Below, piece by piece: positions 2,825 to 7,428 of a stretch of 7,428 nucleotides of DNA. How positions within the stretch are numbered: the first letter of the stretch is position 1; the number at the start of each line of letters is the position of its first letter. The stretch comes from Tubiluchus corallicola (lineage: Eukaryota; Animalia; Priapulida), in contig JAQGDQ010000270.1 of NCBI GenBank assembly GCA_030141605.1, positions 194,284 through 201,711 of the forward strand, read 5' to 3'. The translations under genes and the position numbers were made by a program. Below the pieces are notes generated by a model. The model saw only the letters and a list, made by a program, of their open reading frames with translations. It was not told the origin of the DNA and did no database searches.

Positions 2825-2860
2825 ACAGAATTCATTTTTTAATGAGGATAAAGTAAATGT

Positions 2861-2904
2861 GTTGTGAATTTTTGTTTGGATTGTGTGTTGGCAAAATTCA
2901 CAAC
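2861..2904. repeat. 12-bp perfect inverted repeat (hairpin), possible terminator or insulator
   Basis: GTTGTGAATTTT (2861-2872) / AAAATTCACAAC (2893-2904), 20-nt loop, followed by TCTTTT on the plus strand. Confidence 0.55.
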
Positions 2905-2932
2905 TCTTTTGCTGTGCGTGGGACTACCTTGT

Positions 2933-3110
2933 GGCTAACGGCTAATGTATGAGTAGTAGCGGACTTAAAAGCGGTTTCGTTTCAAGTAGCTAGGTAGCCA
3001 AAGCTGCACCTTATCCAAATAGTCAAATCGACAGATTTGGCGGGGATGAATAGAGCTACTACCACCCGAATACCCACAGAAACCGCTATTACTCATACAT
3101 ATTGTTAGGG
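2933..3110 (-). repeat. attC-like recombination site A
   Basis: Plus strand: GGCTAAC, 5 nt, 18-bp arm ATGTATGAGTAGTAGCGG (2945-2962) ... CCGCTATTACTCATACAT (3083-3100), ATT, GTTAGGG; 17/18 paired plus one G:T; lies 4 nt from the sulfatase stop codon. Confidence 0.8.
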
Positions 3111-3114
3111 GGCG

Positions 3115-4500
3115 TTATTCTTGAACCGATTTTCTCAACTGAATAGCATAACTATTCATATAATTCCTGCCTGTGGCCGTCACCATAGTTTTTGCAATTT
3201 CCATTAAAGCATCGGCTTTTAAGAGGACTATTTCCTTGTCGTTTTTGTCTAGGGCAAGCAGATAATCTGTCAGTTGGACAGCCCATTGATAATCACCTTT
3301 TTTAATGGCCGCAAAAGAATTTTTTCGCAATTTATCTCTTCCGCCTGCCATTTTTGCCATTCTTTCGGCTTCCTCTTTTGGGGCAAGTTTGTTAAGGTTA
3401 ACAGGATTGCCGTCAAACCAACCTAGGTAACCCTCAAAAATAGCACGGACACCCCAGTCCACACGGCCGTAATATTCTTTCAAATAAGGTTGTGATGCCA
3501 AATGTTCGGGCAACTGTACATATTCCACCAGCTCATCGGGTGTCAGACCCTTGTTTATGCCCTCAATGGTTTTATCAAACACAAATTTTATAGCATCGTG
3601 GTAGTTGCCCAATGTTTCTTTCACCTCTTCTTTCCCTACAACGGGGCGGGTGTGCCCGGGCAGTAAATATTCCGCCCCTTCGTCCCGCATTTTACCGATG
3701 CTTTTATACCAATTTCGCACATCGCGATACTGCGAACCTCTGATTGTATAGAGATTGGGAAAGGATTTGTAATAGCTGTCGCCACAAAAAAGAACTTTTT
3801 GTTCGGGCAGCCAAACATACATATTATCATAGGTTTCACCTGTGGCAGCCACAAACTCAAATTTAACGCCGTCTATTTCTATTTGTTGACGCTCTTGGGT
3901 GAAAAAATGCGTGGGTTTAAGCGGTGTGTTTTTTCTCTTTTTATTGAAGATGGTATTTTTCTTATCTGGTTTTGGGGCAATCCCGTTATTGATGTGCAAC
4001 GAGTCGGGCAAAATAACTCCGGCTTGACGGCTGCCACGAACATTTGCGTAAGTCAACCCCGCCATTTTTCCTGCATTACTTTCTATTCCAAAACCTTTAT
4101 TCTCACCAAGCTCCGAACTTCTAACCCAAATCTGAGGATTGCTTCCTTCGTCAAGGAAAGGCTTAATGCCCGCAAAATGGTCGCCGTGTCCGTGCGTTAT
4201 GATGATTGCCTTTATGGGCTTGTCAGTAATTTCGCGAAACTTTAACCTCAACGCCTCCATACGTATCGGCGACATTCCTGCATCAATCAATATTATTCCG
4301 GTTTCGCCCTCAAGCATACCTATGTTACTGACTTCATAACCTACGGCAAACCATACATTTTTATCGAACTTGAATATTTTAGGGACAAACTCCTTGTTCT
4401 GTTCGTGCAAAAGTTGAGTTGCTTCGGTTTGTTGTTGTGCTTTCGTAGTTGTGGAAAAAGCTGCTATCAGCATTAATAATGTGAAGATTTTTGTTTTCAT
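3115..4500 (-). CDS. Secreted alkyl/aryl-sulfatase family protein (metallo-beta-lactamase fold, SdsA1/BDS1-like, with dimerization domain)
   Basis: THGHGDH (HxHxDH), GETYD, PNLYTIRG, LLPGH, YYGRVDW, YLGWFDGNPVNL motifs. Signal peptide MKTKIFTLLMLIAAFSTTTKA-Q supports the ATG at 4500 rather than 4551. Appears to lack the C-terminal SCP2-like domain. Confidence 0.9.
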   Translation of the reverse strand: MKTKIFTLLMLIAAFSTTTKAQQQTEATQLLHEQNKEFVPKIFKFDKNVWFAVGYEVSNIGMLEGETGIILIDAGMSPIRMEALRLKFREITDKPIKAIIITHGHGDHFAGIKPFLDEGSNPQIWVRSSELGENKGFGIESNAGKMAGLTYANVRGSRQAGVILPDSLHINNGIAPKPDKKNTIFNKKRKNTPLKPTHFFTQERQQIEIDGVKFEFVAATGETYDNMYVWLPEQKVLFCGDSYYKSFPNLYTIRGSQYRDVRNWYKSIGKMRDEGAEYLLPGHTRPVVGKEEVKETLGNYHDAIKFVFDKTIEGINKGLTPDELVEYVQLPEHLASQPYLKEYYGRVDWGVRAIFEGYLGWFDGNPVNLNKLAPKEEAERMAKMAGGRDKLRKNSFAAIKKGDYQWAVQLTDYLLALDKNDKEIVLLKADALMEIAKTMVTATGRNYMNSYAIQLRKSVQE

Positions 4501-4558
4501 CTTTGTTAATATATTTTTTGTTAAGACTTTCTTTGGCTGGTAGCATCTCATTTATGCC

Positions 4559-4679
4559 CCCTAACGTTGAGTATATGCAAAGTAGGCGATTGCGGGCTTC
4601 AAACTTATCAAACCGTTACAATTTTTAAGCGGGCTACAGTCCCTGAATTTACTACTATTTCGTATATACATTGTTACAG
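4559..4679 (-). repeat. attC-like recombination site B
   Basis: Plus strand: CCCTAAC, 5 nt, GTATATGCAAAGTAG (4571-4585) ... CTATTTCGTATATAC (4655-4669), ATT, GTTACAG; 12/15 paired, two G:T, one A:C. Confidence 0.7.
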
Positions 4680-4689
4680 GCTGGCGTTT

Positions 4690-5994
4690 TTAAAATGTCT
4701 TTATCTCTCCATTTTCTAACCAATCGGGAATTTCAAATCCATTAGCTTTTGGATGTTGTTGAAAAATTGTCCTTAAGGCACGAATTGATGAATAAGACTT
4801 ATTTATTAATTCTTTTTGTTTGTCTATATATTTTAAATCATAATCATTTTCACTAATCCGATGCGCTGGGTTTTGCCTTTCTCTACGAACCTTTTTTAAT
4901 GGTTTAAAAATATCATCTTTATCAGGGTGATTGTAAGTTAATAAAAGCCATTCCTCTAGCAGTCTTAGCGTTCCTTTTGGCTTTCTTTCAACCATATTGT
5001 CATCTATTTTCTCCAGGTCATATAGCTCAACCTTATCTTTGAAGAAGTCTTTATTTAGGTTGTCAGAAATCATTTTATCCAACAACATCACAAATTCATT
5101 ATAATTTTTCAATGTCGGTGTAAAGAAAAACGTGAAAGATTTTGGTCGATTTTCTTTATCAAAAGTCTTGTTAAAAAGGTTTATGTCAAAAATTAATTTC
5201 GATAAATCGTTCAAACAATTTAGCTCTCCAAGAAACGCAGAAAAAATAGAGTGAGAGAAAGTCCAATTTCCATTGATTATATTTTCGTGATACTCTTTTA
5301 GCATTTTGCAGTCTTCTGAAACTTCTTTACCTTGCCAATAAGATTGATGTTCAGGAGTTAGGTCTTTTAAATATCTCAAATAAACAACAGCAAGCCTATT
5401 ACCTTTAGAATCAAATCCTAATCCGAATGATTTAAGAAATACTTGGTCTTCCTCTCTCACACTGGGCTTATCATTATCATCGTATTTACAAGATATCCTT
5501 CCAGAATAATCCTCAAATTGAAAATCAAATCTTGGGTCATTAGCGTATCGTTCAAGAACCTCAATTTCAAAAAATCTTGGAGTCAAATGAGGATGTGCTA
5601 ATGCTAAGAGTTTAGTGTATTCCGCTGCCCCATATACACCAGTGTCTCTATTGGAATTTAAATAATCCTGCGATGGGTAAAGGCAGATTGGAAATTCTGT
5701 ATTTTCACTCGAAATAGTAATTTCTCCAAACTTTTCCTCTGTCACTGTTATTTTTTTGGCGTCTTCAAGTATTTTTAATTGGCTTTCAGTGGGATAGTGT
5801 TTAAATACAATTATGTGAGGATTTGTACTGGATTGAATGGAAATCGAATTCTCCTTAACTAATTCTTTGATAATATCAATTGAATCTTTATAGTCAATCT
5901 GGAATTCTTCAGATATATTCCGCAATGGAACACCATTAAAATCAGTCGATTTTACAAAAAAATCATAAACTCTATTTCTTATCTTTTCTTTCAA
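4690..5994 (-). CDS. Hypothetical protein, 434 aa, with C-terminal RxxxxH (HEPN-like) motif
   Basis: Long ORF filling the cassette, TTG start; no signal peptide, TM segment or Walker A seen; C-terminal helical region has KKVRRE-RQNPAH. Confidence 0.8.
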   Translation of the reverse strand: MKEKIRNRVYDFFVKSTDFNGVPLRNISEEFQIDYKDSIDIIKELVKENSISIQSSTNPHIIVFKHYPTESQLKILEDAKKITVTEEKFGEITISSENTEFPICLYPSQDYLNSNRDTGVYGAAEYTKLLALAHPHLTPRFFEIEVLERYANDPRFDFQFEDYSGRISCKYDDNDKPSVREEDQVFLKSFGLGFDSKGNRLAVVYLRYLKDLTPEHQSYWQGKEVSEDCKMLKEYHENIINGNWTFSHSIFSAFLGELNCLNDLSKLIFDINLFNKTFDKENRPKSFTFFFTPTLKNYNEFVMLLDKMISDNLNKDFFKDKVELYDLEKIDDNMVERKPKGTLRLLEEWLLLTYNHPDKDDIFKPLKKVRRERQNPAHRISENDYDLKYIDKQKELINKSYSSIRALRTIFQQHPKANGFEIPDWLENGEIKTF

Positions 5995-6029
5995 TCGTTT
6001 CTATTTTGCAGTTGGTTTCTTACGCTTGC

Positions 6030-6108
6030 CTGTAACGGTGAAGCTATGCGTAGTGTTTTTTGTGTTGCGCCTACGGCAAAAAACATTACGTATGAGCTAT
6101 TGTTGTGC
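6030..6108 (-). repeat. attC-like recombination site C (short)
   Basis: Plus strand: CTGTAAC, 5 nt, AGCTATGCGTAGTGTTTTTTG (6042-6062) ... CAAAAAACATTACGTAT-G-AGCT (6077-6098), ATT, GTTGTGC; 21-bp stem with two G:T and one extrahelical G (6094). Confidence 0.85.
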
Positions 6109-6120
6109 TTTCGTGCTTTT

Positions 6121-6957
6121 CTAACTCATTACTGTTACAAATTCTAAAAGTCTCAATCCAATTTCTTCTTCACCATTAATTTTAATAATTGATTTATATT
6201 TCTCCTTCTCTCGGTCAGTGTTTGTAAATATCTTCCAAGCAATATTATCAGGAAGTTCAACTGAAGTGTTTATCTGATTTTCTGAATTCCCAAGTAATAT
6301 CCACTTATCAGTTTGTCTTTCAATTATCCAGCTTTTATTAAGAATTCCTGTCAATCTAACTTGAACTCTATAACCGTTTTCATAGTCAGAAAAGTCTTTG
6401 TACAAGTGCGGAAGCCCACGCATAAAGGTATCATATAGTGGTTTCGAGAATTTAGGTTCCATTAAAATTGGTTTTCCTAAAGCTAATCTGATTTGCATTT
6501 GATGATGCCAAACTTCCGTATATTCTCTAGCAGTATCAAACCAGTTTAGCGACTCAGTTTCGCCAGCCCAATTAACTGGAAATATTGCTATTTCATTCGG
6601 GTCTAAAGTTCCTATAAACTCATTGAATTGATTCTCCGAATATTCCAATAAATCAATTAATATTTCAGGACTTAATCGACGGCTAATATTCATCCAATCA
6701 CTATTCAAAGTTTGAATATGATTTACTAAATCACCGTATGATTGAATATTGGGTGTATTAGTTTTATCTGCAAAATGGTCTCTCTGAATTGACAATTTTC
6801 TTAGTGAACCATCAATTATGTGCGAAACTAAATCTTTTACTGTTCTTCCTTCTATTGGCGATGGCTTTAACCAATCAGATTCATTCAAGCTACGTAAAAG
6901 CTTTAATAATTCATCTGTCAACTGTGGGAATAAGTGTATTGTTTCTATCTGTTTCAT
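6121..6957 (-). CDS. Maleylpyruvate isomerase N-terminal domain (MDMPI_N, DinB superfamily) protein
   Basis: LLRSLNESDW.KPS...RTVKDLVSHI and REYTEVWHHQMQIR metal-binding motifs of the DinB/MDMPI fold; 278 aa. Confidence 0.85.
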   Translation of the reverse strand: MKQIETIHLFPQLTDELLKLLRSLNESDWLKPSPIEGRTVKDLVSHIIDGSLRKLSIQRDHFADKTNTPNIQSYGDLVNHIQTLNSDWMNISRRLSPEILIDLLEYSENQFNEFIGTLDPNEIAIFPVNWAGETESLNWFDTAREYTEVWHHQMQIRLALGKPILMEPKFSKPLYDTFMRGLPHLYKDFSDYENGYRVQVRLTGILNKSWIIERQTDKWILLGNSENQINTSVELPDNIAWKIFTNTDREKEKYKSIIKINGEEEIGLRLLEFVTVMS

Positions 6958-6996
6958 TATTCTTTATTTGTTCTGACTGGACTCTTCTTGCATGAA

Positions 6997-7185
6997 GCAC
7001 AACGGTTTATGTAAGTGGAGTGCGGGATTGAAAGTGATGACCTTTCAATTACGCATGGAGCCAATTCGTTTATTCATATTCTCTTTTTATAGCCAAATCG
7101 TCAAAGACGAATTGGCGGTGTTGCAACGGAGAACTGCGGTTGGATTACCCGCTGAAACCCGCATTACATTTACATTTTGTTAGCA
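6997..7185 (-). repeat. attC-like recombination site D
   Basis: Plus strand: GCACAAC, 5 nt, ATGTAAGTGGAGTGCGGG (7009-7026) ... CCCGCATTACATTTACAT (7158-7175), TTT, GTTAGCA; 15/18 paired, two G:T, one mismatch. Confidence 0.8.
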
Positions 7186-7192
7186 GTTGTTT

Positions 7193-7428
7193 TTATTTTT
7201 GATTTTCAACATTCTTGATAAATTCTTGTAGTTCATATTTTAAGGTTTTAATTTTATTTTCAAAGCTATATACTTTTCTATCAAATTTTGGCCATAACTT
7301 ATCAATTTGCTTAGAAATATCCCCCTCAAGTTCTTGTAATCTATTATCAAAAGCATATGCAGTTGAATTAAAGCTTTCAATTATTTTTTCATCATTTATA
7401 GAGTTCCACCATTTATAGAACTCATATT
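7193..7428 (-). CDS. 3' end of a hypothetical protein (partial, start beyond right edge)
   Basis: Not in the ORF track. Manual translation is open from the edge to TAA at 7195-7193: ...YEFYKWWNSINDEKIIESFNSTAYAFDNRLQELEGDISKQIDKLWPKFDRKVYSFENKIKTLKYELQEFIKNVENQK*; stops just before site D like the other cassette genes. Confidence 0.75.
   Translation of the reverse strand, partial: YEFYKWWNSINDEKIIESFNSTAYAFDNRLQELEGDISKQIDKLWPKFDRKVYSFENKIKTLKYELQEFIKNVENQK

Follow-up and report, generated by a model that had tools for sequence, protein, structure and literature searches.

Four long hairpins separate the genes of a 7,428-nucleotide (nt) stretch of the Tubiluchus corallicola assembly GCA_030141605.1 (contig JAQGDQ010000270.1; hereafter the window), and the question raised by this locus is whether they are recombination sites and, if so, of what kind of system. 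We found that each of the four hairpins marks a genuine cassette boundary, with one gene per cassette, and that the window is an ordinary, headless piece of an integron-like cassette array type that is common in Bacteroidota. An R'' box (RYYYAAC) and an R' box (GTTRRRY) surround the hairpin that follows each gene, as in the attC sites of integrons. When the cassette ends were set at the AA/C cut by analogy with attC, the end box of each of the three complete cassettes was the reverse complement of that cassette's own start at 7/7 positions, and the end boxes at sites B and A showed no such match to the R' of their own site. Over all loci, the four bases outside R'' matched the cassette's own start in 37/40 single-gene cassettes and the R' of the same site in 3/40; the mean match after shuffling was 1.45 of 4. 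Cassettes shared between loci gave 62 alignments with 124 ends. At a tolerance of 8 nt, both partners stopped at R' at 60 of these ends and at R'' at 5; 28 ends fell inside a site and 19 elsewhere.

Sites A to D (Table 1) each lie between co-oriented minus-strand genes, so the plus strand is the bottom strand in attC terms. A first-pass annotation of the window had described four sites with exactly five nucleotides between AAC and the stem and three between the stem and GTT (5/3 geometry). Direct reading confirmed the positions, lengths, 5-mers and 3-mers that it had reported, and a geometry-free scan, in which 0-8 unpaired nt were permitted on each side, gave 5/3 for all four; an ungapped scan was too strict and recovered only site A. 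Arm alignments of the core stems contained seven G:T pairs and one A:C pair on the plus strand, in agreement with the earlier count of seven G:T pairs among eight transition mismatches, a bias that is statistically weak by itself (two-sided binomial ~0.07). The sole bulge was G6094 of site C, where alone a clear extrahelical base had been claimed. Sites A and D are predicted to fold with a further pair, between the leading G of the 5-mer and the final T of the 3-mer, which leaves an open loop of 4/2. The same annotation had proposed folding both strands as a check on strand-biased folding, and this bias was present at three sites: A, C and D folded better than shuffled sequences on the plus strand, and there the bottom strand was the more stable and the richer in G:T pairs, as is typical of attC. 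Site B folded no better than shuffles on either strand (z of +1.3 and +2.0).

Hairpins of this kind were then compared across Bacteroidota in two sets. The first comprised 142 distinct hairpins anchored to open reading frames (ORFs), taken without a geometry or flank filter (1/99 control ORF ends scored); the second comprised 132 sites that passed a filter on their flanks (YAAC[A/C]..CGTT[A/G]), at a threshold lowered because the aligner penalises gaps (control ORF ends, 0/51). The 5/3 geometry occurred in 33 sites of the first set and 36 of the second, and the R' side was the longer one in 118 (by 1-5 nt) and 130, respectively. Per locus, the commonest offset was 3, 2 or 4, and 6/3, 5/1, 5/2, 6/4, 6/2, 5/4 and 7/3 geometries were also present. 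The polarity of the spacer is thus conserved in the family and its exact numbers are not. As a comparison we used sites from 20 Bacteroidota IntI loci and four class 1 integrons, with one locus (L119) excluded and tallied separately. None of these 124 IntI-side sites was exactly 5/3. The IntI-linked attC of Bacteroidota have L'-R' spacers of mostly 8-9 nt against 5, and are longer on the R' side as well (114/124). What distinguishes the family is the missing extrahelical G of the L box: this canonical base was found in 1/132 family sites and in 91/124 IntI-side sites, with the same bulge result at both thresholds. Within the window, sites A, B and D have no extrahelical base 9 nt after AAC, and the bulged G of site C comes one base early, 8 nt from AAC on the top strand; the bulged register accommodates all five class 1 attC controls.

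These comparisons changed the picture drawn by the first-pass annotation, which had called the geometry invariant, had contrasted it with a roughly symmetric attC spacer and had proposed a distinct class that standard attC models may miss. The 5/3 rule applies to the four window sites and lapses family-wide. A symmetric spacer describes the five class 1 attC controls (5 and 5-6 nt) and does not describe the IntI-linked sites of Bacteroidota, so lopsidedness fails as a mark of the class. The class itself stands, in that its sites escape the IntI-type model described below and have a non-canonical L box, with the missing extrahelical G, not the spacing, as its mark. Larger collections of sites had been named as one comparison that could refute the proposal; in them the 5/3 spacing was not conserved and the bottom-strand bias was.

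That bias was strong. With a scoring scheme neutral between strands, family sites contained 221 G:T pairs on the bottom strand and 23 on the top strand, and the bottom strand was the more stable in 96/118 sites, by a mean of 2.0 kcal/mol (-2.02). It speaks for a folded strand of DNA rather than for RNA terminators. The bias is not new and does not single out this family, since classical attC sites show the same G:T and energy bias, of -2.12 kcal/mol, in the portion consulted of the published analysis (PMC5027507). In addition, pairing was kept while the stem sequence varied freely, with 222 cells carrying changes on both sides.

We built a covariance model from 41 family sites, all from other genomes, and applied it to the window. 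It returned exactly sites A to D (scores in Table 1), and the next match reached 8.8 bits. A surrogate IntI-type model, which was made from 26 IntI-linked sites of which only four were class 1 and poorly aligned, and which is not IntegronFinder's model, detected held-out IntI arrays and gave the window sites 5.3 bits at most. Scoring against an attC covariance model, another check that had been suggested beforehand, thereby came out as expected for sites that are not ordinary attC. Ordinary attC identity, considered as a candidate for the window sites, was rejected on this score and on the lack of a canonical L box. A comparison with Rfam gave nothing near a gathering score, and the family model found no matches among the short sites of the Bacteroides ovatus rAID array. 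Site B matched plasmids of Riemerella, Myroides and Persicobacter, site A had no real match among plasmids, and a pattern built from site C hit three metagenome loci without model matches.

The enzyme that accompanies such sites was identified in other genomes. Genome G003 has an array of family sites headed by a 282-residue recombinase and, on another contig, bulged attC sites headed by a true IntI. Relatives of the 282-residue enzyme occurred in 114/301 sampled Bacteroidota genomes and true IntI in 90/301, many of these with attC arrays having spacers of 5 and 8-9 nt; few Bacteroidetes integrons are reported in the part of the IntegronFinder 2.0 work consulted. Forty recombinase loci were taken from the listed matches by score and contig extent, and in these the family sites lie mostly downstream of and co-oriented with the recombinase gene. 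One subfamily (L085, L086, L089, L090, L092, L094) has upstream, divergent arrays, the layout of classical integrons, and its recombinases of ~280 residues form one well-supported branch. We aligned 40 recombinases, namely the ORFs of 37 fetched loci and those of L025 (the G003 locus), L096 and L097. The distance from the K box to the RHS motif was 77-83 residues in 40/40, against 119-120 in 22 IntI proteins, and the I2 region of ~40 residues that is present in all 22 IntI is absent from all 40. The I2-less enzyme scored 215 bits against TIGR02249, below the cut-off of 265, and its best solved relatives are archaeal XerA proteins, which come ahead of IntI4. L096 is an immunity-gene array of B. 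ovatus, assigned to rAID here on the basis of its annotation; its recombinase shares 52% identity with the G003 enzyme and is nested within the family in a quick tree. Family membership of the window sites suggests that the window array belongs with an I2-less recombinase.

These arrays also have a primary site. In arrays of other genomes the first cassette starts just behind the recombinase gene, and the starting 7-mer predicted from the end box of the first cassette was present behind the recombinase in 11/12 testable loci (27 inspected). A palindrome ending 3-7 nt before GTT stood behind the recombinase in 11/32 loci, compared with 0-1 in each of 10 shuffles.

By analogy with IntI, we consider it likely that cleavage by the I2-less recombinase takes place in R' of the folded bottom strand, and that the gene is then excised together with its site and reinserted at the primary site. 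The four elements would then be cassette boundary sites that are recombined as folded bottom strands by an IntI-related, I2-less tyrosine recombinase of the rAID type. Its binding targets would be the first stem and the R duplex (AAC/GTT), and its cut, like that of IntI, would fall in the bottom-strand AAC of R'; gene and site would leave together in circular form and enter at the GTT that lies behind the recombinase. The strand could be chosen through the one-sided spacer, which is 1-5 nt longer on the cut arm, and through bottom-strand G:T pairs, both replacing bulged bases. The mismatched, lopsided spacer is also a candidate for blocking the second strand exchange, with resolution left to replication. 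In classical integrons the I2 helix docks the bulged bases of attC and prevents the second exchange, according to the part of the work consulted (PMC7790495; likewise below), so the joint absence of I2 and bulge fits one enzyme-site pair. CTX phage recombination by XerC likewise involves a folded single strand, an enzyme without I2 and one strand exchange only (PMC7790495), and is thus a precedent for one exchange without I2; it differs in that host XerCD acts on a dif mimic, with no recombinase or cassette array of the phage's own.

The same recombinase could instead act on ordinary double-stranded sites through two exchanges, so that the hairpin would be a by-product of inverted binding boxes. 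An enzyme without I2, solved relatives that are archaeal XerA before IntI4, and a palindrome at the primary site are all in keeping with this. We nevertheless think it unlikely: the arms lie ~45-240 nt apart, a spacing that exceeds one Xer-type core, the stem sequence drifts freely with pairing retained, and G:T pairs concentrated on one strand (221 vs 23) would not be selected by double-stranded recognition. Still less probable, in our judgement, is that a true IntI elsewhere in the genome uses the sites as atypical attC. True IntI is indeed present in 90 of the 301 sampled genomes, the AAC/GTT boxes and the strand bias are like those of attC, site C has a near-canonical bulge, and family sites lie near IntI at L119; yet IntI loci have a site class of their own, with the G bulge in 91/124 and exact 5/3 in 0/124 (L119 apart), and the two site classes of G003 adjoin different enzymes on different contigs. 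Finally, we give almost no credence to terminators or REP-like repeats between genes assembled by other means, since the elements, which do come after stop codons and fold well, have wobble pairs favouring the non-transcribed strand and show a cassette-specific R''/R' match and homology ends at R' that require a site-specific recombinase, while control ORF ends yield no such site (0/51).

Several points weigh against recombination of folded bottom strands by an I2-less enzyme, or against parts of the case made for it. The window contains neither a recombinase nor an IntI, and recombination through folded single strands at family sites is something that we infer; in the published model, as far as the consulted text of PMC7790495 goes, I2 is precisely what permits safe single-strand recombination. 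The sample of shared-cassette ends is dominated by four plasmids, one with a Persicobacter array and three others. The covariation is partly built in, as the sites were selected for complementarity. The family model gives some IntI-type sites 15-24 bits, and one IntI locus, L119, has family sites nearby in opposite orientation. The I2-less proteins are not established as a single clade (a quick tree, with three changes). No cassette circle or clean excision was found in the contigs of four metagenome runs, three of them from what may be the source sample, and the short-sided joints seen in one of them, run X4, probably come from other cassettes. A further point concerns cassette 2, a copy of which, ~93% identical and with other neighbours, occurs in an independent metagenome (run X4). 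Its match to window positions 4674-6039 ends at both R'' and R', and the copy has a different site from B. The site body may be exchangeable.

Several described systems invite comparison. In the sources consulted (Ross et al., bioRxiv 10.1101/471110; PMC12247911), the rAID-1 clusters of Bacteroidales consist of an XerD-like recombinase and, behind it, co-oriented genes whose intergenic regions hold repeated motifs 'reminiscent of integrons'; these sources give neither a fold nor a cut site nor an excision test. The family arrays share this layout, and the defining rAID-1 enzyme is a 5' XerD-like recombinase >44% identical to BF9343_RS08045. The window has the at least two co-directional genes that are expected of such a cluster. 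The intergenic motifs of B. ovatus (L096) fold with the same polarity (2/5, 3/5 and 3/6 on the top strand) and resemble the window sites in layout. They differ from the window sites in being shorter (mostly 43-46 nt) and in ending with ATT instead of GTT. The cargo differs as well: rAID arrays carry orphan immunity genes, whereas the window encodes sulfatase-like, MDMPI-like and unknown proteins. The family has several features in common with the classical attC/IntI system: the RYYYAAC..GTTRRRY boxes, cassettes of a single gene, R'' and R' that pair in the circular form, a crossover at R', a bottom-strand bias in G:T pairs and in energy, and a primary site beside the recombinase gene. The differences lie in the absent extrahelical G of the L'' box, the absent I2 of the enzyme, a recombinase gene usually co-oriented with the array and the palindrome often found at the primary site. 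The IntI-linked attC of Bacteroidota come from the same phylum, and sometimes the same genome, and also have the longer spacer on the R' side, but they have a bulged C (top strand) 9 nt after AAC plus a second bulge, and run divergently from a true IntI. The family array works like an integron cassette array without being classical attC/IntI, and is kin to rAID except in the cargo that defines it.

We regard as evenly balanced the broader proposition that this is a phylum-wide second cassette system, in which an I2-less enzyme would act on folded, bulge-less single strands with the strand set by the lopsided spacer and G:T pairs; it would constitute a living model of the integron before I2, the capture mechanism of rAID and the source platform of the tet(X), estT and lnu(I) cassettes. 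According to the integron model, as given in the consulted part of PMC7790495, folded single strands could recombine only with the help of the I2 helix and of the bulged bases docked by it. Both are missing here while the other cassette signatures stay, which makes that model testable with natural enzymes and sites. A concrete mechanism is also offered for gene acquisition by rAID. In the literature searched, we came across no account of the fold, of the absent bulge or of the primary site, and only the 'integron-like repeats' of rAID came close; subscription papers lay mostly outside this search, as did the rAID motif figure and the bioRxiv supplements. The portions consulted of PMC8618304 and PMC13616975 contain nothing on family sites.

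Family sites also occur on plasmids, either as a long array or flanking resistance genes, namely estT, tet(X), blaOXA, blaMYO-1, aadS and lnu(I). This places the resistance genes, from plasmids of Riemerella, Myroides and Acinetobacter, in cassettes that seem to escape attC models of the IntI type. The lnu(I) cassette found on a Riemerella plasmid (L021:24363-25420) recurs with 99.7% and 97.5% identity in two other genomes (L061, L077); in both it directly follows the recombinase as first cassette, and the homology stops at R'. On an Acinetobacter plasmid (L097:2967-5117), tet(X3) has beside it an 'xerD/tpnF' that is a truncated member of the recombinase family, with 60% identity to the G003 enzyme. 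Behind this recombinase come a palindrome and the cassette start that tet(X) also has in Riemerella and Myroides, and a partial family site follows the gene; the region looks like a captured array head. ISCR2 is the only mobiliser named in the consulted part of a paper on the tet(X3) structure (10.1101/2021.08.02.454847). A Myroides plasmid (L022:9010-24190) carries four copies of an element with a tyrosine recombinase and IS91, each of which starts at the R'' GTT of a family site; at aadS and catB the element has parted the gene from its site. These elements resemble insertion sequences that target attC. The Persicobacter plasmid pPP2 (L023) contains a super-integron-like array of >25 family sites in 40 kb with many related cassettes.

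Table 1. Sites, cassettes and leader hairpin of the window. Scores are for the family covariance model; z compares the plus-strand fold with shuffled sequences.
Feature	Positions	Strand	AAC to GTT	5-mer, 3-mer	Bits	z	Description
Site A	2933..3110	+ (bottom, folding strand)	2937-3106 (170 nt)	GGCTA, ATT	52	-5.2	Site of cassette 1; R' CTAAC left, R'' GTTAGGG right; 5/3; bulge-less
Site B	4559..4679	+	4563-4675 (113 nt)	GTTGA, ATT	48	+1.3	Site of cassette 2; worn, weak fold
Site C	6030..6108	+	6034-6104 (71 nt)	GGTGA, ATT	37.2	-4.0	Short site of cassette 3; one bulged G (6094); 5.3 bits with the IntI-type model
Site D	6997..7185	+	7001-7181 (181 nt)	GGTTT, TTT	46.5	-3.1	Site of partial cassette 4
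Cassette 1	2939..4564 (1626 bp)	-					Start GTTAGGG matches end CCCTAAC; gene 3115-4500, alkyl-sulfatase / metallo-beta-lactamase-fold protein
Cassette 2	4565..6035 (1471 bp)	-					Start GTTACAG matches end CTGTAAC; gene 4690-5985, 431 residues
Cassette 3	6036..7002 (967 bp)	-					Start GTTGTGC matches end GCACAAC; gene 6121-6957, MDMPI_N / TIGR03083-like protein
Partial cassette 4	7003..7428	-					3' end of ORF, 7193-7426, runs off the window; the array head would be beyond
Leader hairpin	2852..2913	-					Starts ~43 nt after R' of site A

The product of cassette 1 matched PF14863 (144 bits) and PF00753 (92 bits), and the protein of cassette 2 had no family in Pfam or NCBIfam. The G+C content differs by cassette, at ~29-36% in cassettes 2 and 3 and ~41-46% in cassette 1 (the cargo limit for rAID-1 is <=41%). 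Homologs of a cargo gene point to Bacteroidales. The cassette 3 gene has homologs at six loci; none has a site directly beside the gene, and the nearest family sites are ~10 kb off in L001 and L003. Homologs of the cassette 2 protein were found in 3/401 genomes, none with sites. The genes of both cassettes thus also exist outside cassettes.

The motif of the leader hairpin recurs 47-51 nt past a GTT box in three other genomes, and the genes to the left of it may start a further cassette. Between positions 3 and 2764 the co-oriented genes encode a membrane protein, a winged-helix regulator, a 265-residue protein with a weak Pfam match only and a CarboxypepD_reg-domain protein. The gene for the last of these stops at 548 and is followed by an unannotated ORF at 3-377; the two are perhaps, we presume, a frameshifted outer-membrane receptor.

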